Part shown: positions 3,393-47,582 of the stretch, one piece after another
Layout of the letters: the number at the start of each line of letters is the position of its first letter
How positions within the stretch are numbered: position 1 is the stretch's first letter
Source of the DNA: a virus
Strand: one strand, 5' to 3'
Virus record (IMG/VR): IMGVR_UViG_3300045988_033553
Span: 1 to 59,936 of that record
Length of the DNA: 59,936 nucleotides
Translations under genes and position numbers: made by a program
The notes under the pieces: generated by a model
The model's input: only the letters and a program-made list of their open reading frames with translations
Database searches by the model: none
Told to the model about the DNA's origin: nothing

Positions 3393-3612
3393 TCTTCTCC
3401 TTCCCGTACCGCAACTGATACGGTACTTCCTTAAAATCTCTCAATGCATCCGGGTTTGGATGCTTCGGTATTCTCGTCTGATGGTTTTCCATCTCTGCTA
3501 TGATTCTGCGTCTCTCTTTGCTTTCTCTGCGCAATTTATATCTCCGTCATTTTCCAAGATTGTTTACAAGCTGTTCTGACCTCGTATAAGCCTTATCCAA
3601 CAGTTCTAAATA

Positions 3613-3837
3613 TTAATCAAAAGAAATCTGTGCCTTTTCAGATAACTCCCTCGGATAACGCTCTAACAAAGCCTTAACACACTGCTTCATGTCTCCAAAA
3701 TATCCGATTGTCCGAACGCTTTCTTTTTCATTGCCGTCCTTATCCTGTCCGGTGTATCTCTGTCTCAGGGTGTGATTCAGAGAATCGATCTCTACAAAAT
3801 ATCCATCCTGCAGTTCCACAGTTAACTTGTCCATCAA
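3613..3837 (-). CDS. hypothetical protein, 74 aa
   Basis: Intact ORF, co-oriented. Confidence 0.5.
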   Translation of the reverse strand: MMDKLTVELQDGYFVEIDSLNHTLRQRYTGQDKDGNEKESVRTIGYFGDMKQCVKALLERYPRELSEKAQISFD

Positions 3838-3846
3838 CCATTTCTC

Positions 3847-4473
3847 CTATATTTCATACGTCTTTCCGATAAAACGCTTGTCAATGTACTTACATTCCCA
3901 TTCCAAAACACTTGCGATCCCCGTCATGGTTTCATATCCGGTAGCAAGGCAGTTAATCAAATATCTGATTCTCTCATAAACCTGTCTGATCTGATTTCCC
4001 GAAAATTTAAACTGCGTTTTAAGGCAGACACCAAGCATTGAAAAGTAATTAAATACCTGTGCCAGTAAAAACTTATTTGCCTGTATCATGCAGTTCGGTG
4101 CGATCTTTCTTTCTACCAGATAAAAGCTCTCACGATACGGAATCTTATTTGTTTCCTTTCGCACGTCAATCTTGCATTTATCTTTCAGATAAAAACCAAG
4201 TTCCTCGCCTGTCGTTCCATCCTTTGCATTTTCCACATATGCATCAATGGTCTGCTCAACCTTTATGATTCTTTTGTGTCCGAATCCGAACTTATCATGC
4301 AGTGCCTGATATGCCATCATACGGACGTTATAATAGGATTCCTCTATTAGATAATCCGCATTGCTTTGTGCCTTGGCGTGTCTCTGTATTCCGATCAGTT
4401 CACTCTTGGAATATCCAAGTGGCTGCATCCGCTTTTTCTTTCTTGTCAGTGTATTACTCATTTGCTCTTCCAT
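3847..4473 (-). CDS. hypothetical protein, 208 aa
   Basis: Intact ORF directly downstream of dnaB and a small ORF. Confidence 0.55.
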   Translation of the reverse strand: MEEQMSNTLTRKKKRMQPLGYSKSELIGIQRHAKAQSNADYLIEESYYNVRMMAYQALHDKFGFGHKRIIKVEQTIDAYVENAKDGTTGEELGFYLKDKCKIDVRKETNKIPYRESFYLVERKIAPNCMIQANKFLLAQVFNYFSMLGVCLKTQFKFSGNQIRQVYERIRYLINCLATGYETMTGIASVLEWECKYIDKRFIGKTYEI

Positions 4474-4697
4474 CTCCTCTCTACATCCTCAAAATGGCTA
4501 AATACAAGACTTTGAACATATTTTGATATATTTGTCCGTGCATATTTTTTAATTAGCATTTCCCCTTCTTCCATCATTCCTTGGAACCACTCATCTTCGT
4601 TATCAGCTTCATAAAACTGCTGCCGGAATTTATAATAGTCATTAAAAAACTGCCATTCTTCGGAACCTTTTTCAAATTTCTTACTTGCCATAATCAT
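4458..4697 (-). CDS. hypothetical protein, 79 aa
   Basis: Intact ORF, co-oriented. Confidence 0.5.
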   Translation of the reverse strand: MIMASKKFEKGSEEWQFFNDYYKFRQQFYEADNEDEWFQGMMEEGEMLIKKYARTNISKYVQSLVFSHFEDVERRWKSK

Positions 4698-4704
4698 TCA
4701 CCTT

Positions 4705-6012
4705 TTAATCAAATGGTGTGCCGCCACATACTTCTCGGAAACCGTCTTTCTGTCGCATCCGTGCTTGAATCTGTTCAATGGTTTCGGTTCGCTCCATAAA
4801 TTCCATACGATCACCTTCAAACTGAACAACTTCTCTAAACGGTGTACCCTGTCGATTCTTTTCAACTTTCAAGCCTTTAAATTTTCTGTCTTCATCCAAA
4901 TTCCACATAAGAATAATATTGGAAGCATCCTGCTCAATATCTCCGGATTCTCTTAATTCGGACATTGTAGGCTCTTTCGTTGCATTCATTTCCGATACTC
5001 GGTTAAGCTGTGACAATAGGATGATCGGAACGTGAAGCTCTCTCGCAAGTGCTTTGAATTGCTTCGAAACTTCCCCGACTTCGGATGCACGGTTATTGAA
5101 CTTCCGGTTACACCGTACCAATTGCAGATAGTCAACTACGATCACGTCATATCTTTGATGCCTGCATTGCGTTCTTATTTCCTCAATAACATTTGTCTGA
5201 TCGTCAATTGTGATCGGATATTTTTCAAGTTCATCATTTGCCTTGTCAAATGCTTCTTTCTCTCCACCAAGAAAAGCCTTTGCCCTGCGAACTCTTGTCA
5301 GACCAATCTTTGACATTCTTGAAACAAACCTTTCATAAATCTGACTGTTGTTCATCTCCATGTTGTAGTAACAAGTGTTATAGCCTTTTCTTGCCATATT
5401 CTCGATTATTTGTGCCACAATAGCAGACTTACCAACTCCCGGTCTCGCGGCAACAACTGTAATGTCTCCGCCTTCAAGACCGCCAAGGCAATCGTCAAGA
5501 TGGTAAAATCCTGTCTTTACCCTGTCCTCTCCAACATCATCATTGAAGTATTTATCTTTGTTCTCTGATACGATTTGCTTCATCAACTTAGATTTCTTCA
5601 ACTGATTAACTTGGATTTCTTCAAGCCTTGTAAGAACTTCCGCGATCGAATTATCAATATCACACGGTCTAAGGCTCACTCTCTGGAAAAGGCTTTTCGT
5701 TTCCCTTGCCCGCCAATCCTTAATGACTGCATCCGCATAGTTTTTCATTGCTGTCGATAACGGAGTTGCGGCAACACATTCCTTAAGCTCACCGGCAATC
5801 ATTTCCGGCTCCCATTTGTGGTTTTCAAGTGACTGAGACAGCGAAACGATATTGATGTTTTCACCCCGGTCATACATGGCAAGCATTTCAGCAAAAGCAT
5901 CTTGGCAAAATTCAGAGCTGAACATTTCCGGCTTCAATTTGTTGTAAACCTTAAACATGGAATCATTGTCGATCAGTACGCAACCGATCACTCCCTGTTC
6001 TGCTTCCGTCAA
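4705..6012 (-). CDS. dnaB: replicative DNA helicase DnaB
   Basis: 435 aa. Walker A AARPGVGKSA, the DYLQL motif and the SELRESGDIEQDAS arginine-finger region are characteristic of DnaB. Confidence 0.9.
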   Translation of the reverse strand: MTEAEQGVIGCVLIDNDSMFKVYNKLKPEMFSSEFCQDAFAEMLAMYDRGENINIVSLSQSLENHKWEPEMIAGELKECVAATPLSTAMKNYADAVIKDWRARETKSLFQRVSLRPCDIDNSIAEVLTRLEEIQVNQLKKSKLMKQIVSENKDKYFNDDVGEDRVKTGFYHLDDCLGGLEGGDITVVAARPGVGKSAIVAQIIENMARKGYNTCYYNMEMNNSQIYERFVSRMSKIGLTRVRRAKAFLGGEKEAFDKANDELEKYPITIDDQTNVIEEIRTQCRHQRYDVIVVDYLQLVRCNRKFNNRASEVGEVSKQFKALARELHVPIILLSQLNRVSEMNATKEPTMSELRESGDIEQDASNIILMWNLDEDRKFKGLKVEKNRQGTPFREVVQFEGDRMEFMERTETIEQIQARMRQKDGFREVCGGTPFD

Positions 6013-6824
6013 CTGTTCTCACCTCGCTTTCGTTTCTCAACTTGACGAATCCAGTAATCGCAATCCTCTTTCAGCCAGTCTCCGTATTTTGGTATGTAGC
6101 GATAATTCGTATCATCTGGATTCTTCTCTATATAGTCAGTAACATATGCCACTGTAGCCTCATATATCAGCTTTGCAACGGCTTTTCTGTTCGGTTCGAT
6201 AACTTCTAAAAGCTTGTCCATCCATGCTACCTTGGCAGACGTTAACGACGTTTTCTTTGGATATGCATTGATCGTGTATTCCCATCCCCATTCCGCGTCA
6301 AAGTCCAAATCAGATGCAGGCACGCTTTCTTTTGTATTTTCTTTCTCTATCTCTATATCTGTATCTATATCTTTCTCTATATCTATCTCTACATTGCAAT
6401 TTTGTTGCAAAATGTTGCACTCCGTTGCTCCACTGTTGCATTGCAACACTTTTTGTGCATTTTCCCTAGATTTACGACTTCTACGAGTGCTTGCCGTCTC
6501 GCTTCCTAGGTTATCTTGCACAAATGGCAACTTGTACTCAATGGAATCTGATGTTTCAAGCAATCCGCAGGAAAGAAGATACTGAATCGTTACTTGAACA
6601 TTGATTTCGTCCTCGTCAATATCAAGGGCAATCTCTTTGTAAAATTCATCTTCCAAGCCGGAATACTCTAAGTAGCCGCCCTTTTTCAACGACAACAACT
6701 GCATCTTAAGGTATATGATCGTATATGTATCGCCACCAGCCATCTTTCGGAGTTTTTTGATTCGTTTGCTATCAAAGAAATCATCCATCAGTTTAAGCCA
6801 GTAATACCGCTTATTCTCCGCCAT
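6009..6824 (-). CDS. phage replisome organizer (N-terminal replisome-organizer domain)
   Basis: MAENKRYYWLKLMDDFFDSKRIKKLRKMAGGDTYTIIYLKMQLLSLK matches the phage_rep_org_N pattern; start trimmed to Met26; coupled to dnaB. Confidence 0.75.
   Translation of the reverse strand: MAENKRYYWLKLMDDFFDSKRIKKLRKMAGGDTYTIIYLKMQLLSLKKGGYLEYSGLEDEFYKEIALDIDEDEINVQVTIQYLLSCGLLETSDSIEYKLPFVQDNLGSETASTRRSRKSRENAQKVLQCNSGATECNILQQNCNVEIDIEKDIDTDIEIEKENTKESVPASDLDFDAEWGWEYTINAYPKKTSLTSAKVAWMDKLLEVIEPNRKAVAKLIYEATVAYVTDYIEKNPDDTNYRYIPKYGDWLKEDCDYWIRQVEKRKRGENS
6394..6446. repeat. Iteron cluster: 6 TTGCA(A) motifs with 10-11 bp phasing, inside the replisome-organizer gene (candidate ori)
   Basis: TTGCA starts at 6394, 6405, 6415, (TTGCT at 6425), 6436 and 6441; preceded by tctatatct-type repeats at 6340-6390. 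Confidence 0.6.
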
Positions 6825-38693: not shown

Positions 38694-40475
38694 TCAATAC
38701 CTCCTAAACGGATTTACTGCTGCTTCTACTTTTGCTACATTCCTTCCATTTGTCACTCTAAGCGCAAAGTTTGAAAATACATCTGGCACATCATCCAACT
38801 GCTTTTTACCGGATACTGAATATCTCTTAAGAAGAGACATCATTACTCCGTATGGCTCATTCGGCTTATATGATGATGGGTCTTTAAATATAACGTGCTG
38901 CAATATCCAGTTTGAGCACTGAAAAATCCTTGCTTCCTTATTTGTCTCCGTCGGTGTATCTGTGATATTGCATATCCATCCTTTGGCTTCCACTCGCTTG
39001 TTTACTTCCATTGCGACACGGTCCCCTCCGGCATTTCTCTCAAATTCACATTCCTGAACTTTGTTGTTTGTCAAAACATTTGCTGCATTTTCATACTGAA
39101 CCTCATAATCTGCCGTGTTATCGCAAGCACAATCCACGCAGTAGTAATCTTCTCCGTATTTTTGCAATACAGGCAGAACAAAATAGTCTGTTCCCTTTCC
39201 CTTTGTATCGCACTGACCGGTTACAATCTCCGGCTCTCCATGCGGCAAATTAAGATACCGACGTATTTTATCTTCCGGAAACAGCAATCCCTCACGCTCA
39301 ATCGGTTCCTGTTTGTAAAGGCATCTATATGATATGTCGTCCATCAATAATTGCTGATCTTCGAAAAATTCTTTTGTAAACCCAGAAAACTCATAGTCAA
39401 AGTTACTTTCTCCTGTTTTAGAATCCACATCTGGTACCGCAATAACCTTTACCCTTGGATTTCCCTCGTACATATTCTGGATACGCCCTATGACGTCGTG
39501 TACGCTCCATCTGGTCGCAATATGTATTTCCTTGCAGTTCTTACCATCCGTGTCCTGTATCTTTCTCTGACGAGCATCTACAGCGTATTTATCCCACAAT
39601 TTATCAAGAGTAATAGGATTCATTGCTTCTTCAATGCCGCCGATCATATCGTCAACCAGTAAAAACTTAGAAGCCCTTACTTTACCTGCATTCTTACTAC
39701 CAACAGACGTACATTGTACGGATGGAAACGATTTGTACTTCCCGACATTAAACTGCTCCATCTTTGCATTTGTGCTCGTCACGGAAAGATCCGGAAAAAT
39801 TTCATTCCATGTATATTCTTCCGTATTTGTAACGATATCGTACACACCGTCATAGTACATTCTGGTAATATCTCCGCTATGCGAATAAAAAAGACTGAAA
39901 TCTCTAGGGAACCATCCGGCAACAAGTGCGTGAAACATTTTTTCAACCGTTGTTTTACCAGCACCTGGGACAAGTGATACGCACAGGATGTCATATCTAT
40001 CATCAATCATGCCTTGTAAAGCCTGTGTAAGCCCTATTTTGAGAAATTGCTTTCTTCTTGGCATATAAAACCGTTCTTTAGGATCTCTTTTCTTTTCCAA
40101 ATACTGGAAAGCACTATCCACAACTTTGTTTTGCGCTTCCAAAAGCAAAATTCCGTAATATTTGTCCAGAATTTCATAAGATACCTTGTTTTGGAATGAA
40201 TATTTCTCTAAATCCCATGGTGTGCCACCTGTAGATTGAAAGATAAACTGTTCCGTCAGTTCTTTCGCTCTGGCAGAAACTTTTAATCCATACTCAAAAT
40301 CTTTTTCTGTCAGAATGGCTACCCTTGCCGCTTCTGCCATGGCATCCATAACCTGTTCATCAACGCCATGCACCTGTATGTAATTTTCATATCCATTTAC
40401 TGTGGAAATTAGGCTTGAACTTGCCAAAAGAAAAGCACCTCCGCAAAAAAGCAGAAGTGCCTTGACCTCTGCCAA
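38694..40475 (-). CDS. terL: terminase large subunit
   Basis: Walker A VSLVPGAGKTTVEK, Walker B LLVDDMIGG, and a C-terminal RNaseH-like nuclease region; the N-terminal ~45 aa look hydrophobic, so the true start may be internal. Confidence 0.85.
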   Translation of the reverse strand: MAEVKALLLFCGGAFLLASSSLISTVNGYENYIQVHGVDEQVMDAMAEAARVAILTEKDFEYGLKVSARAKELTEQFIFQSTGGTPWDLEKYSFQNKVSYEILDKYYGILLLEAQNKVVDSAFQYLEKKRDPKERFYMPRRKQFLKIGLTQALQGMIDDRYDILCVSLVPGAGKTTVEKMFHALVAGWFPRDFSLFYSHSGDITRMYYDGVYDIVTNTEEYTWNEIFPDLSVTSTNAKMEQFNVGKYKSFPSVQCTSVGSKNAGKVRASKFLLVDDMIGGIEEAMNPITLDKLWDKYAVDARQRKIQDTDGKNCKEIHIATRWSVHDVIGRIQNMYEGNPRVKVIAVPDVDSKTGESNFDYEFSGFTKEFFEDQQLLMDDISYRCLYKQEPIEREGLLFPEDKIRRYLNLPHGEPEIVTGQCDTKGKGTDYFVLPVLQKYGEDYYCVDCACDNTADYEVQYENAANVLTNNKVQECEFERNAGGDRVAMEVNKRVEAKGWICNITDTPTETNKEARIFQCSNWILQHVIFKDPSSYKPNEPYGVMMSLLKRYSVSGKKQLDDVPDVFSNFALRVTNGRNVAKVEAAVNPFRRY

Positions 40476-42230: not shown

Positions 42231-42344
42231 TTGATGTGGCATGGATTTGCACCATGCATGATTAGTGCACTTCTCGTCATCTAGGTTGCCGGTTTCAACG
42301 AATTATCTTACGGCAATAGCGTTTACCTATTCCGCCACACATCA
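42231..42344 (-). ncRNA. tRNA-Leu-like element with an expanded anticodon arm (114 nt)
   Basis: Acceptor TGATGTG/CACATCA plus A; Leu-type D arm TGGCGGAATAGGTAAACGC; T arm GCATGG-TGCAAAT-CCATGC. The anticodon position is a 6-bp stem TTGCCG/CGGCAA with a 19-nt loop starting UAAGA. Confidence 0.55.
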
Positions 42345-42367
42345 ACGCCAGATTTTTTTCTAGCAAA

Positions 42368-42449
42368 CGCCGTACACAGGATTTGAACCTGCAAGCCTTT
42401 TACAGCCAACGGTTTTCAAGACCGCTCCCTCACCACCCGGACATACGGC
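42368..42449 (-). tRNA. tRNA-Ser (anticodon UGA)
   Basis: Hand fold: acceptor GCCGTAT/GTACGGC, anticodon arm GCGGT-CTTGAAA-ACCGT, long variable arm, T arm GCAGG-TTCAAAT-CCTGT. Confidence 0.75.
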
Positions 42450-42453
42450 ATAG

Positions 42454-42539
42454 CGCAGTGTGCAGGATTCGAACCTACAAAGCGAATAAACGCCCGACCG
42501 GCTAGCAACCGGCTCCAATTCCAATTATGGGAACACTGC
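42454..42539 (-). tRNA. tRNA-Ser (anticodon GCU)
   Basis: Acceptor GCAGTGT/ACACTGC, anticodon arm GCCGG-TTGCTAG-CCGGT, long variable arm, T loop TTCGAAT. Confidence 0.75.
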
Positions 42540-42629
42540 ATCTTGATGGTGCGATTTCTTAAACAACCCATCCATTACAACTGTCTACCACGCACCTGCC
42601 AAACAGTATTTTTAGGGAGTTGAGTGAAA

Positions 42630-42719
42630 TAGGGAAGAGAGGAATCGAACCTCTATTGTTTACCACTTGGAAACTGATTTACAGTCAGCCGCAACACCGC
42701 CAATCGTTGCCGCTTCCCC
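42630..42719 (-). tRNA. tRNA-Tyr (anticodon GUA)
   Basis: Acceptor GGGGAAG/CTTCCCT, D arm GCAA...TTGC, anticodon arm GCTGA-CTGTAAA-TCAGT, long variable arm, T arm AGAGG-TTCGATT-CCTCT. Confidence 0.75.
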
Positions 42720-42796
42720 AAAATGCGCGGACACCTCACTCCATATCTCTGTACGCGACCGCGCTACGCATACAGTATCAGATCAGCTTGGCACCA

Positions 42797-42883
42797 TCGG
42801 AACGGAAGGATTCGAACCTTCAATCCGGCTCTCGTTGTTGTTTTCCGTGTACACGCCACTTTTACCAATTAAGCTACGTTCCG
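42797..42883 (-). ncRNA. tRNA-Pro-like element A without a recognisable anticodon arm
   Basis: Acceptor CGGAACG/CGTTCCG plus A73; TA-GCTT-AATTGGTAA-AAGT D arm; T arm GAAGG-TTCGAAT-CCTTC. The 35 nt between them (GGCGTGTACACGGAAAACAACAACGAGAGCCGGATT) give no 5-bp/7-nt arm. Confidence 0.5.
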
Positions 42884-43003
42884 AAACCGCCATCAGACGG
42901 TTAGCAATAATGTTTATCGTGCCATGCGTTGCACTAGGCATACAAAATGCCGATTACATCCAAACCATAGAGCGCATGCAAGCAAACAGCATAATTTGAC
43001 CGC

Positions 43004-43146
43004 TTAGACAGGCAAGGATTCGAACCTTGCATTATCGGCTTCAGAAAAGGTGTGGTTGCTGACTACGGATGATCGCCCGTCTGCCACTTGGCAACACTCT
43101 TACCGATAGGTTTCTTTACCTGCAATACCCATTCTGCCACTGCCTA
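43004..43146 (-). ncRNA. 143-nt tRNA-shaped element B with a large internal insertion
   Basis: Acceptor TAGGCAG/CTGTCTA (one G-U); D arm GCAG-AATGGGTA-TTGC; T arm GCAAGG-TTCGAAT-CCTTGC; internal 64-nt domain closed by TATCGG/CCGATA. Confidence 0.5.
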
Positions 43147-43411
43147 ACTATATGGGGGAATTATATTTTTGACAGCTCAGGCACCGTGGGATAGATGCCC
43201 GAACTATCAAGTCTGACTGCTATATGGATTGCTTGTCAGCAAATTACGGAACGATCATCATTCATCACCATATAGTCTTACGCCTAATGCCGCGCTCCGC
43301 GGCAAATACCACCGGACGGTCTCGCACCGCCCTTAACAGAATCGTCCTAGTGGCGAAAGGAGAAATACGAACTTTTCGTATTCCGAGATAAGCTTTAAAC
43401 CTATCTCTCAA
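43147..43411 (-). ncRNA. ~265-nt structured, ORF-free spacer (candidate ncRNA domain)
   Basis: Hairpins at 43385-43407, 43364-43382, 43289-43303 and 43229-43242; 8-bp long-range pair CTATATGG/CCATATAG (43220-43227 / 43268-43275). Confidence 0.35.
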
Positions 43412-43500
43412 TCGGAACGGCAGGACTTGAACCTGCGGCTATCAATTCATTAGAGCATGGAAGAATGAAAAGATTGCTCTTTCCTCTGAGCTACGTTCCG
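43412..43500 (-). ncRNA. tRNA-Pro-like element C with an 11-position anticodon helix and a 12-nt loop
   Basis: Same acceptor CGGAACG/CGTTCCG plus A73 as element A; D arm GCTC-AGAGGAAA-GAGC; T arm GCAGG-TTCAAGT-CCTGC; middle ATC-TT-TTCATT [CTTCCATGCTCT] AATGAA-TT-GAT. Confidence 0.5.
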
Positions 43501-43629
43501 TCACAGCGCGCATAGCGCGCCGCTTATGATAGTATTTTTGATCTTTTTATTTTGCCGACGTCCACTAACACCGAATAATTGCTTGCGCCGAGTTTTTTCT
43601 TGCAAAAACCGAATGCCAGTGGACTTAAG

Positions 43630-43794
43630 CTATACTGGATGCTCCGACTTCTCAGACTGGTGCTCAGCGTCACTATCCAGATCGAGCAAATCTCCGGTGC
43701 TGTCCGGTCCTTTTGATTTTGTTATATGTATTCTTTCCTCTGCACAAATGATAGGCAGCTGAAAGCAAATACCAAATATTGGACTATAAGACAT
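43630..43794 (-). CDS. small hypothetical protein, 54 aa
   Basis: Hand translation MSYSPIFGICFQLPIICAEERIHITKSKGPDSTGDLLDLDSDAEHQSEKSEHPV; RBS TGGAGGTAACAGA. Confidence 0.35.
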   Translation of the reverse strand: MSYSPIFGICFQLPIICAEERIHITKSKGPDSTGDLLDLDSDAEHQSEKSEHPV

Positions 43795-43798
43795 TCTG

Positions 43799-43954
43799 TT
43801 ACCTCCACATCAGAAACATGTTCAGCAACAGCAACATCACAAGTACACATAATGCAATTGATGTTTCTTTGTCTTTGGATTCTCTGCCAGATACAAATAG
43901 TATCAGCATAAAAATAACATCCAGCGTCGATATAATCGTTTTAATAATTACCAT
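43799..43954 (-). CDS. small hydrophobic protein, 51 aa
   Basis: ORF 43799-44014 trimmed to MVIIKTIIS..., preceded by GAGAGGAAAACAACC; two hydrophobic helices. Confidence 0.4.
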   Translation of the reverse strand: MVIIKTIISTLDVIFMLILFVSGRESKDKETSIALCVLVMLLLLNMFLMWR

Positions 43955-43974
43955 GGTTGTTTTCCTCTCACAAG

Positions 43975-44046
43975 TTTCTTTAGCAGGATTCGAACCTGCG
44001 AATACTGGAATCAAAATCCAGTGCCTTACCGCTTGGCGATAGCGCT
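43975..44046 (-). pseudogene. tRNA-Gln(UUG)-like with a non-complementary acceptor stem
   Basis: TC-GCCAAGCGGTAAGGC-A-CTGGA-TTTTGAT-TCCAG-ATTC-GCAGG-TTCGAAT-CCTGC is canonical Gln, but 5' AGCGCTA versus 3' TAAAGAA pair at only 3 of 7 positions. Confidence 0.5.
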
Positions 44047-47303: not shown

Positions 47304-47504
47304 ATGAGAGGAACAGGATTATTTATTAATTGGGAATCAGGAAATAAAAACAGTAATGCGATTCAGGAATTTGAAAAAAACGGCATCAACTGGGAATATA
47401 ACCACTTTGGAACACTTACAGCCGACTTTTACGGTATCGGGATTTTTGAAAAGGTCGATTTTGAACATATCCAAGGCGATGTGTTTGAAATCTGCATAGC
47501 ATAG
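47304..47504 (+). CDS. hypothetical protein, 66 aa
   Basis: ATG 2 nt after the previous stop; GGGAGGTG RBS. Confidence 0.5.
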   Translation: MRGTGLFINWESGNKNSNAIQEFEKNGINWEYNHFGTLTADFYGIGIFEKVDFEHIQGDVFEICIA

Positions 47505-47582
47505 CCGAAACGCTCCGATCTGGAGCGTCAGCCGCGGGATGGTCGCCGTGGCTCTGATGATGGCAGACCAGAAAGGGAAAAT

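Follow-up and report, generated by a model that had tools for sequence, protein, structure and literature searches.

A gene for a 143-nt tRNA-like RNA was found on the minus strand at positions 43004–43146 of a gut phage DNA; the whole stretch that was analysed (59,936 nt) is called the window. The gene is part of a tRNA array that precedes the large terminase gene by about 2.5 kb on the same strand. ARAGORN found four tRNAs in the window, and the element was not among them. The array also holds a tRNA-Gln whose ends do not pair (43981–44041), and the window contains a second tRNA-like gene. Positions in the element are numbered as p = 43147 minus the window coordinate. The features are as follows.

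43004..43146, minus strand: whole 143-nt tRNA-like RNA (171 bits with covariance model R1; the homology of L226 and L328 is confined to exactly 43004–43146)
43140..43146, minus strand: 5' strand of the acceptor stem, UAGGCAG (p1–7), with its partner at 43005–43011
43122..43137, minus strand: D arm GCAG-AAUGGGUA-UUGC (p10–25), preceded by U8 and G9; read from the sequence
43109..43120, minus strand: short hairpin GGU-AAAGAA-ACC (p27–38) of 3 bp with a 6-nt loop, standing where a tRNA has its anticodon arm
43033..43108, minus strand: 76-nt long arm (p39–114) at the position of the variable arm; from RNAalifold on alignment A4
43040..43046, minus strand: 7-nt bulge UUCUGAA (p101–107), adjoining the basal helix on the 5' side of its 3' strand
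43055..43079, minus strand: 25-nt core CGGGCGAUCAUCCGUAGUCAGCAAC (p68–92), the apical hairpin and its 3' flank, identical in 13 of 13 A-type variants
43012..43030, minus strand: T arm GCAAGG-UUCGAAU-CCUUGC (p117–135), stem of 6 bp, with A115 and U116 just before it
43004..43011, minus strand: 3' strand of the acceptor stem, CUGUCUA (43005–43011), and discriminator A (43004); CCA is not encoded
42231..42344, minus strand: second family member, 'type D', 114 nt; from a custom scan

Every sequence block listed in the original prediction was found on the minus strand of 43004–43146. The acceptor strands UAGGCAG and CUGUCUA form 7 pairs including, as predicted, one G-U pair (G4.U139). Among A-type homologues, pairs 5-138 and 6-137 were compensatory and 4-139 was either G.U or G-C; in the wider family described below all 7 acceptor pairs covaried. 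A14, A15, G18 and G19 of the D arm were invariant, and the D-stem pairs showed compensatory changes over types A–F. Compensatory changes were also found in the T-stem pairs 118-134 and 119-133, and the sixth T-stem pair was G-C, A-U, C-G, G.U or U.G across the wider family, in an alignment selected for pairing at this position. The predicted D and T arms were thus both there, but the T stem has 6 bp, which gives a non-canonical acceptor/T helix of 7 + 6 = 13 bp instead of the usual 7/5 (12 bp). The 7/6 register is fixed by the U8-G9 linker and the D stem. The elbow elements U8, A14, G18 G19 and the T loop UUCRANY are all found in the window copy, U8 being C in some variants, and U116 would be the Levitt partner of A15. 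Another reading of the ends, in which the invariant U1:A72 of types A–F is taken as U at −1 and discriminator A of a 6/6 helix, was disfavoured because 1:72 covaries in the wider family (U-A, G-C, A-U, C-G).

The short hairpin GGU-AAAGAA-ACC was conserved in all homologues at the anticodon-arm position; its pair 29-36 was U-A, A-U or C-G, and its AAAGAA loop was invariant, also in the divergent homologue L328. Having 3 bp and a 6-nt loop, it contains no anticodon. It had been described as AGGT-AAAGAA-ACCT, followed by a helix TATCGG...CCGATA. Both helices were recovered, but T39 had been counted twice: pair 39-114 was U-A, A-U or G-C, so this base belongs to the long helix and the hairpin is only GGN-AAAGAA-N'CC. 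It was confirmed that UAUCGG...CCGAUA encloses 64 nt, and the long helix reaches 7 bp via U45-R108. Above this 7-bp basal helix, the long arm continues with 3 + 3 bp up to an internal loop, beyond which 4 bp and 5 bp lead to an apical loop of 6 nt. RNAalifold on A4 showed compensatory changes in pairs 39-114, 42-111, 43-110, 44-109 and 47-99, and further in 48-98, 50-97, 51-96, 62-86 and 64-84. Concerning the predicted inner helices, ACGG/CCGT was kept, in L328 as well, but GTGTTGC/GCAACCAC was rejected, being 84.6% paired across homologues with zero compensation. An alternative inner helix p52–56/p81–85 fitted one-sided changes and was dropped, L328 supporting the RNAalifold helices. L328 also retains the helix of the 25-nt core, with a different loop sequence. 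In the bulge UUCUGAA only the middle base varies (U in the window copy, A in other lineages and L328), and a chimeric variant, L224, has UUUAGAA. The bulge resembles an anticodon loop (U-U-NNN-A-A), and its UUC may contact the AAAGAA loop of the hairpin.

It was found that 21 of the 42 consensus pairs changed on both sides among A-type homologues from three phage lineages, and that 12 of the 17 shell pairs were compensatory over types A–F. Covariation in homologues extended over the shell, the small hairpin and the basal part of the long arm, which supports the predicted tRNA shape with a structured domain in the anticodon/variable region. The structure is specific to the transcribed strand because of its G.U pairs. 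A custom scan for a 7-bp acceptor, a D arm and a T arm found 9 tRNA-like shapes in the window, i.e. the tRNA array with the element included, compared with a mean of 0.12 per shuffled window (100 dinucleotide shuffles). The original concern that the acceptor pairing might be coincidental, the parts being a truncated tRNA fragment and unrelated sequence or the homologues being unpaired, does not hold for the window copy, and the homologues retain paired ends. The element is a real, conserved, tRNA-shaped, non-decoding RNA gene, in which the upper half of a tRNA is retained (7-bp acceptor, U8, D arm with G18 and G19, possible A15/U48 pair and T arm).

Rfam searches of 60 kb, 4 kb and 171 nt, run both at the gathering threshold and at E ≤ 10, returned nothing except an echo of the T arm, a 15-bit match to mascRNA. 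This check had been proposed with the original prediction, and for the 171 nt it gave no family match, Intron_gpI, tmRNA and tRNA included, even at E ≤ 10. The proposed ARAGORN intron search gave calls at lowered threshold only: at 80%, with introns allowed, the element was called a tRNA-Arg(UCU) with a 69-nt intron. These calls were rejected, as the identities disagreed among types (Arg, Asn, Phe, Leu). Running ARAGORN on all possible internal deletions produced low-threshold calls of mixed identity. Position 26 is not followed by the 5-bp anticodon stem and 7-nt loop (U33, purine 37) of a canonical tRNA. No Intron_gpI or other ribozyme match was obtained at E ≤ 10, the usual group I intron having at least about 200 nt and a conserved catalytic core, and lying in the anticodon loop. 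The covarying structure has a 7-nt bulge and 3-bp helices, not the 3-4-3 arrangement of a bulge-helix-bulge motif.

The position of the long arm, between the hairpin and A115-U116, matches that of a class II extra arm, but its 76 nt and internal loops differ from the typical 10–25 nt. This agrees with the earlier statement that the insert (64–76 nt) falls below the size of a group I intron and exceeds that of an ordinary class II arm. With class II bacterial tRNA-Leu the element shares the topology of acceptor, D arm, arm at the anticodon position, long extra arm and T arm; it keeps A14, G18 and G19, an A15/U48 pair is possible, and the D arm of the wider family, GCGGAAUNGGUAGACGC, is found in tRNA-Leu genes as well. 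It differs from tRNA-Leu in lacking the 5-bp/7-nt anticodon arm, in an extra arm of 76 nt against about 15 nt, in a T stem of 6 bp against 5 bp, in a family discriminator that is not fixed as A73, and in lying below the ARAGORN and Rfam tRNA thresholds.

The D arm of tRNA-Sec has a 6-bp stem and a 4-nt loop; that of the element is ordinary, and no UCA or other usable anticodon is present. The Rfam tRNA-Sec model scored 11.8 bits on the element, with 47 required. Among irregular tRNAs, tRNA-Sec shows 8/5 or 9/4 splits (13 bp) and allo-tRNAs show 8/4 or 9/3 (Mukai et al., PMC5389517). The element resembles them in its non-7/5 split, its total of 13 bp as in tRNA-Sec and its long variable arm; irregular tRNAs also occur in phages and in polycistrons, and a regulatory non-coding RNA role has been suggested for them (PMC5389517). 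Unlike them, it has a 7/6 split, which is outside the list in that paper, with the T stem rather than the acceptor lengthened, and no anticodon arm.

An ARAGORN tmRNA search was negative. The ends of the element correspond to acceptor and T arm as in the tRNA-like domain of tmRNA, and in both a large domain replaces the anticodon region. In contrast to tmRNA, the element has a full D stem, its G.U is at 4:69 instead of 3:70 and is not conserved (G-C in other lineages), it has 143 nt compared with about 260–400, and it contains neither a tag reading frame nor pseudoknots. The mascRNA of MALAT1 is similar in that a tRNA-shaped shell recruits RNase P/Z and releases and stabilises an RNA, but this is a eukaryotic case. 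In the engineered 'tRNA scaffolds' used for recombinant RNA, the cargo is placed in the lower half of a tRNA; these differ in being artificial, and in the literature searched no description was found of a natural phage tRNA scaffold with interchangeable cargo. Another RNA for comparison is tRNA-Other, a tRNA-like Firmicute small RNA acting outside translation; unlike the element it is chromosomal, of normal tRNA size and equipped with an anticodon arm. It is cited in PMC5389517 as a Bacillus cereus pseudo-tRNA. The bacterial Y RNAs YrlA and Yrn1 likewise mimic D and T arms, are non-coding, occur in phages and are linked to RtcB operons, and some bacterial Y RNAs are cut by RNase P and given CCA (PMC4201824). 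The YrlA module differs in being permuted (T, closed acceptor, D), with the ends of the RNA forming the Ro-binding stem (PMC4201824), whereas the ends of the element form the acceptor stem. No Y RNA match was obtained with Rfam, and no Ro/TROVE gene was found among the window ORFs scanned with Pfam.

Homology with L226, from a distant phage with a terminase about 30% identical, started exactly at nucleotide 1 and stopped at nucleotide 142, the element being conserved between unrelated flanks. The A-type interior was found in L226 and L328, in the latter inside a D/F-type shell. L287 and L275 share the B-type interior, and inspection of their sequences by eye showed compensatory changes. L224, L208 and L244 are chimeras recombined at the T loop and broken copies with mismatched ends, which indicates that the element is dispensable in some genomes. 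Scans of genome contigs and metagenomes with an 18–20-nt core added only near-identical copies and one Roseburia MAG prophage. The host is likely bacterial, with this prophage as the nearest signal.

The element belongs to a wider family. The family shell has a 7-bp acceptor of free sequence, a 2-nt linker (mostly UG), a D arm with GG, and then A/U and a 6-bp T stem, whose first pair is G:C, with a T loop of 7 nt; all of these were found in the window element (shell alignments A2 and A3). The interiors, of 23 to about 200 nt, are mostly without a canonical anticodon arm and are conserved within a type, as is the case for the element. Searching IMG/VR with a tRNA-Leu D-arm pattern gave 121 matches, 70 of which had the 7/6 shell (interiors of 23–200 nt), and 20 were in the 7/5 register, most of them with 82–86 nt as in ordinary tRNA-Leu. 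The family D arm was also present in ordinary 82–86-nt phage tRNA-Leu genes found with the same pattern. In total, 61 distinct members were obtained from IMG/VR. R1, although built from the A type only, scored family members at 30–46 bits and ordinary tRNAs at ≤23 bits. The type D member of the window, UGAUGUG UG GCGGAAUAGGUAAACGC ... GCAUGG UGCAAAU CCAUGC CACAUCA A, scored 39.2 bits (E 5e-5) and was missed by ARAGORN and Rfam.

The commonest T loop of the family was UGCAAAU, whose G at position 55 might make the canonical elbow weaker; UUCAAAU was found in 12 of the 61 members. The window copy has GCAG-AAUGGGUA-UUGC and UUCGAAU in place of the tRNA-Leu-type D arm GCGGAAUNGGUARACGC and the T loop UGCAAAU, indicating that the A type is a divergent subtype. 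The discriminator was A in 30 members, U in 17, C in 10 and G in 4, so that a common aminoacylation identity is not evident. No conserved protein neighbour was found near 60 diverse members. The family is a large set of phage RNAs derived from tRNA-Leu, which share the 7/6 shell and have very different interiors. It is widespread and apparently undescribed: text and sequence-string searches of the literature found no description of these elements, and the SPP1 re-annotation paper does not mention them.

To judge from the sequences, there is about an even chance that this phage gene encodes a stable tRNA-like RNA with no decoding role, a tRNA-scaffolded effector released by tRNA-processing enzymes. 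It would be transcribed together with the neighbouring tRNAs. Its ends would be cut by RNase P and by RNase Z or exonucleases, and CCA would be added, as is suggested by its shape, since the shell presents features recognised by these enzymes. It would be excluded from translation because the anticodon loop is absent and the acceptor/T helix has 13 bp. The shell may act as a scaffold for processing and stability and as homology arms for cassette exchange, and the long arm may be the working part, which would bind a partner from either the host or the phage. The element probably serves to manipulate the host or to counter its defences. The absence of a conserved protein neighbour is consistent with an RNA working with host factors.

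Full-length unannotated matches were found in the cultured phages SPP1, Listeria PSA and Leuconostoc phiLNTR3 and in Lactiplantibacillus phages. Family members often lie between late activator and terminase genes. In PSA, H1-Guo and LP-LmcIH1-8 the member has a late activator of the ArpU, DUF722 or DUF1492 type on one side and HNH, terS or terL on the other; phiFL2B has a partial match at the same position, which R1 did not confirm; in SPP1 the element, of about 105 nt in the region 3423–3532 of X89721, is unannotated inside the head operon, between genes 9 and 11. The recurring late activator-terS position fits a cis-acting role equally well. The element might be a tRNA-like 'punctuation' mark in late/packaging-operon leaders, where RNase P/Z cutting would define or stabilise the ends of downstream terminase or structural mRNAs, or would tie late expression to the tRNA-processing capacity of the host, and the freed RNA would be a by-product. 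The place of the window array upstream of the large terminase gene and the lack of a conserved protein partner also agree with this. We nevertheless regard it as unlikely, for a pure processing signal would need neither conserved covarying interiors nor alternative cassettes at one slot. In addition, the elements of Lenus and the window sit among ordinary tRNA genes, and some close relatives keep the same operon with no element at the slot.

In phages with terminases 96–98% identical, the same slot was occupied by A, B, C or nothing. Interchangeable cassettes at one slot are typical of accessory or counter-defence loci. RtcB adjoined the array in about 23 related loci. Such an allele-like slot among near-identical phages, the adjoining RtcB and the recurrence of UAAGA in loops of types A, B, D and E would also suit a decoy or sponge for host tRNA-acting factors, i.e. 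defence nucleases or toxins that cleave tRNAs or modify acceptor ends; the shell would attract them, the variable lower half would adjust the specificity, and collateral damage would be left to RtcB for repair. There are published precedents: phage tRNAs are proposed to counter tRNA-targeting defences (PMC10264068), and operonic tRNAs have been proposed as toxin-RNase sponges co-regulated with rtcB (PMC8421152). Such a decoy is, however, quite unlikely here. The defence nucleases considered mostly read specific anticodon loops, and most family members have no canonical anticodon arm; RtcB is absent from the window phage itself, and no defence-system partner could be named.

It is highly unlikely that the element is the precursor of a decoding tRNA, which would lose its small hairpin and most of its long arm as intervening sequences before religation, e.g. 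by RtcB; the 7-bp helix would then carry UUCUGAA as its loop (anticodon CUG, or CAG in other lineages) in an RNA of about 76 nt. The bulge, as U-U-C-W-G-A-A, does adjoin a covarying stem and fits Y-U-NNN-R-N with only middle positions varying, and removal of p27–38 and p46–100 in our own construction leaves 76 nt. RtcB in relatives, the ARAGORN call with a 69-nt intron and a 76-nt family member (L273) with a near-canonical arm and the loop UUUUAAA point in the same direction. But two introns at non-canonical positions would be needed, without a bulge-helix-bulge motif or a ribozyme/group I signature, and the low-threshold ARAGORN calls disagree among types. The likely host is bacterial, as judged from the Roseburia MAG prophage, and bacteria are not known to have a tRNA splicing endonuclease. 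In most family interiors an anticodon arm is missing altogether, a 13-bp acceptor/T helix and a 7-bp 'anticodon stem' would still be abnormal, and the supposed 'intron' is itself conserved and covarying. A functionless, decaying tRNA pseudogene or recombination scar in a fast-shuffling array, as might be imagined from the damaged tRNA-Gln, the T-loop chimeras and the absence of the element from about 60 of the first 132 related loci, is disfavoured as scarcely probable, given that 21 of 42 pairs are maintained by compensatory changes across lineages, that the element is conserved between unrelated flanks and that at least 61 distinct elements share this architecture, also in unrelated cultured phages.

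The usual interpretation of tRNA arrays in phages is codon supply or protection against nucleases. The array described here holds genes with only the upper half of a tRNA, the decoding half being replaced by conserved, swappable domains. Standard tRNA finders and Rfam miss such genes, so that they are absent from annotation, even in model phages. The wider proposal, which falls a little short of an even chance, is that these genes form a widespread undescribed class of tRNA-Leu-derived 7/6 shells with interchangeable structured 'cargo' arms, located in tRNA arrays or in late/packaging-operon leaders of many Firmicute phages (SPP1, PSA, Leuconostoc, Lactiplantibacillus), and that they would serve as a modular RNA platform, either in counter-defence or in the control of late genes. 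Should the family prove functional, the 7/6 geometry would join the known non-canonical tRNA shapes, and the shell would be a natural counterpart of the engineered tRNA scaffold. SPP1 in B. subtilis and PSA in Listeria offer genetically tractable systems for the roles of tRNA-like RNAs during infection. The finding also accounts for hot-spot recombination at T loops within such arrays.

A promoter or terminator of the element's own was considered and rejected: a weak -35/-10 match ends 1 nt upstream of the element, the start would fall inside the acceptor stem, and the match is absent in B-type loci. For an antisense target in the phage genome, the best matches were ≤12 nt, which is at chance level. 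UAAGAG would be the complement of the tRNA-Lys(CUU) anticodon loop; the idea of a codon display that this suggests is speculation.

All sequence blocks listed in the original prediction were found on the minus strand of 43004-43146, where the 143-nt RNA (the element, type A) reads UAGGCAG UG GCAG-AAUGGGUA-UUGC A GGU-AAAGAA-ACC UAUCGGU...(62 nt) and, after the 62 nt, GCCGAUA AU GCAAGG-UUCGAAU-CCUUGC CUGUCUA A. A scan of the window required a T-loop-like heptamer closed by a 5-bp T stem, a perfect 7-bp acceptor ≤260 nt upstream and, at the proper offset, a D arm containing GG. This shape scan gave 9 matches, 7 of them, including the element, inside the tRNA array (mean of 0.12 matches in 100 dinucleotide shuffles).

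Features of the terminase and tRNA array region
38694-40475, minus strand, large terminase gene
42231-44041, minus strand, tRNA array
42231-42344, minus strand, second long tRNA-like element (type D, 114 nt), detected by the shape scan
43412-43500, minus strand, tRNA scoring 47 bits in Rfam, its acceptor, D and T arms well formed
43981-44041, minus strand, tRNA-Gln(UUG) body, with only positions 6-65 of the Rfam model covered (48.7 bits)

The element was not called by ARAGORN or by Rfam at gathering; Rfam at E≤10, run on 4 kb and on 171 nt, also left it uncalled, the T arm being the sole echo. Among 13 distinct sequences, 8 pairs changed on both sides: 5-138 and 6-137 in the acceptor, 29-36 in the small hairpin (U-A, A-U and C-G), 39-114, 42-111 and 43-110 in the long helix, and 118-134 and 119-133 in the T stem. 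After the divergent locus L328 was added, RNAalifold gave 42 pairs with compensatory change in 21 of them.

Consensus model of the element (minus strand; p = 43147 minus window coordinate)
p1-7/136-142, acceptor
p10-13/22-25, D arm
p27-29/36-38, small hairpin, loop AAAGAA invariant
p39-45/108-114, basal helix of the long arm
p46-48/98-100, 50-52/95-97, internal loop, 61-64/84-87, 67-71/78-82, long arm beyond the bulge
p101-107, 7-nt bulge UUCWGAA within the long arm
p115-116, A115 and U116, between long arm and T arm
p117-122/130-135, T arm

Because of the G·U pairs at 4-139, 13-22, 45-108 and 71-78, the fold is specific to the minus-strand transcript. The predicted inner helix ACGG/CCGT was kept in the model; the helix GTGTTGC/GCAACCAC, also predicted, was 84.6% paired with zero compensation and is not conserved. 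T39, which had been assigned to both the hairpin and the long helix, belongs to the long helix and is not part of the hairpin. The upper half is that of a canonical tRNA (U8, A14, A15, G18, G19 and the T loop UUCGAAU), and A15 could form a Levitt pair with U116. Six pairs in the T stem bring the acceptor/T helix to 13 bp. An arm of 3 bp with a 6-nt loop was found at the anticodon position and a 76-nt arm at the variable-arm position. These results show that the element folds like a tRNA in a conserved and strand-specific way, that its acceptor/T helix is non-canonical at 13 bp, and that it has a conserved long arm and lacks an anticodon arm. Models of tmRNA, Y RNA and tRNA-Sec were tried on it and did not fit.

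An exact 30-mer search of IMG/VR found 51 contigs with a nearly identical element. The region was mosaic among relatives with terminases 96-98% identical, and the element was missing from ∼60 of the first 132 related loci. Divergent copies were retrieved with conserved spacers and an internal 16-mer as anchors, and the element was found in the divergent lineages L207, L163, L214, L235, L260, L220, L226 and L328. L220 and L226 came from a phage whose terminase was only ∼30% identical; homology in L226 spanned nucleotides 1 to 142 of the element, with unrelated flanks, and in L328 the A-type interior was enclosed by a different shell. In close relatives, the slot between the conserved spacers held type B (158-159 nt), type C (143-145 nt) or a small hairpin only. 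tRNA-like chimeras whose acceptor halves do not match were observed in L224 (A 5' half, C-type 3' half), L208 (tRNA-Gln 5' half, A 3' end) and L244 (CAKREH010000003.1, a Roseburia MAG), and these are created by recombination at T loops. Array spacers (AGTGCAACGCATGGCACG... and GCTAACCGTC...GGCGGTTT) were repeated between cassettes.

Three further types of differing interior were found.

Types found elsewhere in arrays
Type D, 114 nt, including window 42231-42344 (minus strand)
Type E, 98 nt, clean class-II layout, loop UAAGACG
Type F, 128 nt

Types A-F have in common a 7-bp acceptor, a UG linker, a D arm, a 7-nt T loop, and A/U followed by a 6-bp T stem starting with G:C (the 7/6 shell, an ordinary tRNA being 7/5); compensatory pairs in the shell numbered 12 of 17. 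Types B, C2, D and F have a D arm matching that of ordinary phage tRNA-Leu genes; IMG/VR was therefore scanned with TGGCGGAATRGGTARACGC, and 121 pattern matches among those listed were analysed. The 7/6 shell was present in 70 of these 121, with interiors of 23 to ∼200 nt; 20 were in the ordinary 7/5 register, mostly 82-86 nt as expected of tRNA-Leu, and 31 were assigned to neither. The listed matches comprised at least 61 distinct 7/6 sequences (n = 61: T loop UGCAAAU in 46 and UUCAAAU in 12; discriminator A in 30, U in 17, C in 10 and G in 4). Pairing in this alignment was 100% by construction of the scan, its information lying in the diversity of pair types; pair 1:72 was U-A, G-C, A-U or C-G, and the stem is therefore truly 7 bp. 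Most listed interiors had no canonical anticodon arm, an exception being L273 (76 nt, loop UUUUAAA). A covariance model of A-type sequences only scored family members at 30-46 bits (E 1e-6 to 1e-3, full length) and the ordinary tRNAs of those loci at ≤23 bits. No Rfam family covered any 7/6 member, and no protein family was consistently adjacent in 60 diverse family loci. These data show that the element belongs to a large modular family, varying like a cassette. Rfam detected tRNA arrays, ROOL, type II hammerheads and int-alpA RNA in family-bearing loci, ROOL and int-alpA RNAs being in L296, L274 and L372.

The element is a variant among tRNA-like or irregular tRNA-derived RNAs. The closest described systems are class II tRNA-Leu, irregular tRNAs, tmRNA, tRNA-mimicking Y RNAs (PMC4201824) and tRNA-like processing modules. 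Irregular tRNAs, such as tRNA-Sec (8/5, 9/4) and allo-tRNAs (8/4, 9/3), are present in phages and polycistrons (PMC5389517). The combination of a 7/6 split, anticodon-arm loss and variable cargo is unmatched in these systems, and text and sequence-string searches of the literature, with many subscription papers outside their coverage, found no description of 7/6 tRNA-like elements.

We give roughly an even chance to a released RNA: the element would be transcribed together with the tRNAs, freed by RNase P and RNase Z or exonucleases, given CCA and kept out of decoding. In this reading the effector would be the arm, and the shell would provide a scaffold and a handle for recombination. Antisense targets of the element longer than 12 nt were absent from the phage genome.

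By BLAST, the shell was matched in Lactiplantibacillus, Listeria, Enterococcus, Leuconostoc and Bacillus phages and one Geobacillus phage in GenBank, unannotated every time, and six phages gave full-length model matches.

Full-length model matches
SPP1 (L387, X89721), 3423-3532, between gene 9 and gene 11
Leuconostoc phage phiLNTR3
Listeria phage PSA
Listeria phage LP-LmcIH1-8
L. plantarum phage H1-Guo
L. plantarum phage Lenus, flanked by two tRNA-Arg genes

The SPP1 element, which scored only 21.6 bits with the Rfam tRNA model, is unmentioned in the SPP1 re-annotation paper. Directly after it (∼3543-3590) lies a mini tRNA-like hairpin of acceptor and T arm only (ACGGAC...GCGGG-UUCAAUU-CCCGG...GUCCGU), then a U run. 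In PSA, H1-Guo and LP-LmcIH1-8, the element was just downstream of a late activator and was followed by HNH, terS or terL. Late activators at the element were annotated or scored as DUF722/sigma70_r4 or DUF1492; the upstream gene of LP-LmcIH1-8 is LmaC, without a Pfam match. In phiFL2B, a partial BLAST match unlisted in the model search, the position was the same, after an annotated ArpU-family regulator. The window's array has the orientation of its terminase gene and lies ∼2.5 kb upstream of it. This synteny would suit a cis-acting module that processes or stabilises the late operon, but the interiors are both conserved and swappable, and we consider such a module rather unlikely.

An RtcB RNA ligase gene lies between array and terminase gene in ∼23 related loci (e.g. 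L057 8731-9936), its product 64-75% identical in full-length matches to RtcB of Dulem virus 39 (L001, PP511791.1), the nearest GenBank relative; the window phage has no RtcB gene. A decoy for host enzymes directed at tRNA would be consistent with this linkage, with the cassette behaviour, and with published precedent (PMC8421152, PMC10264068). Anticodon mimicry is absent, however, and the decoy appears improbable.

It was also considered that the element might be a spliced-tRNA precursor, yielding a decoding tRNA after intron removal. The ARAGORN intron models proposed as a check called it only at a lowered threshold, as tRNA-Arg(UCU) containing an intron of 69 nt; when every internal deletion was tried, and when the sister types were analysed likewise, the identities conflicted. 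The bulge U-U-C-W-G-A-A beside a covarying stem resembles an anticodon loop (CUG here, CAG elsewhere), and 76 nt remain when p27-38 and p46-100 are deleted. Nevertheless, two introns, both non-canonical, would be required, bulge-helix-bulge motif and ribozyme signature are absent, and the putative intron is itself conserved and covarying. Moreover, the sole host signal is bacterial (the Roseburia MAG prophage, its copy a T-loop chimera). Splicing is very doubtful. That the element is a pseudogene is scarcely credible.

In its content the window, of ∼60 kb, resembles the genome of a temperate siphophage; it also encodes Rha, DnaB, an integrase, tail proteins and a replisome organiser. A type II hammerhead ribozyme was found at 47503-47572 (plus strand; Rfam 62.4 bits, E 1.5e-10), flanked by two small plus-strand ORFs; Hammerhead_II is present too in the related L057 and the family-bearing L372.

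In the 43412-43500 tRNA, a 34-nt extended hairpin (AUC-UU-UUCAUU-[CUUCCAUGCUCU]-AAUGAA-UU-GAU) replaces the 17-nt anticodon arm; its slot holds a normal tRNA-Ile(UAU) with unchanged acceptor in L060 and L003, and a further variant in L129. Its acceptor CGGAACG/CGUUCCG is shared by a second tRNA at 42797-42883 (minus strand), which has 30 nt in the anticodon-arm position, an ARAGORN 'Arg(ACG)' call without U33, and the motif CAACAAC; CAACCAC or CAACAAC also occurs in types A and B. The acceptor ends of the tRNA-Gln(UUG) body are unpaired, and it is therefore probably a damaged gene; intact copies occur in Dulem virus 39 (4409-4482) and L226 (5570-5642). A weak class-II tRNA-Tyr(GUA)-like gene lies at 42629-42720 (minus strand; Rfam 26.6 bits, D arm unaligned). 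Its L226 counterpart (6198-6283) has the anticodon UUA and was called 'tRNA-Stop' by ARAGORN; it may act as an ochre suppressor in the phage lineage of L226.

Upstream of the element, a conserved structured spacer without an Rfam match was observed at ∼43290-43345 (minus strand; CGCCACUAGGACG...CUGUUAAG-GGCGG-UGCGAGA-CCGUC-CGGUGG) and in L226 at ∼5715-5770. It contains a T-arm-like hairpin, and lineages seem to differ in it by compensatory changes (CCAC/GUGG versus CCUCA/UGAGG). At 43222-43273 (minus strand), a hairpin closed by AUAUGG/CCAUAU carries C-box-like GUGAUGA and D-box-like CUGA; its Rfam matches to C/D snoRNAs are weak (11-14 bits), and a k-turn motif is possible. In Dulem virus 39, a RAGATH-27 RNA (3626-3709, minus strand; Rfam 77.2 bits, just above gathering) sits inside the tRNA array.
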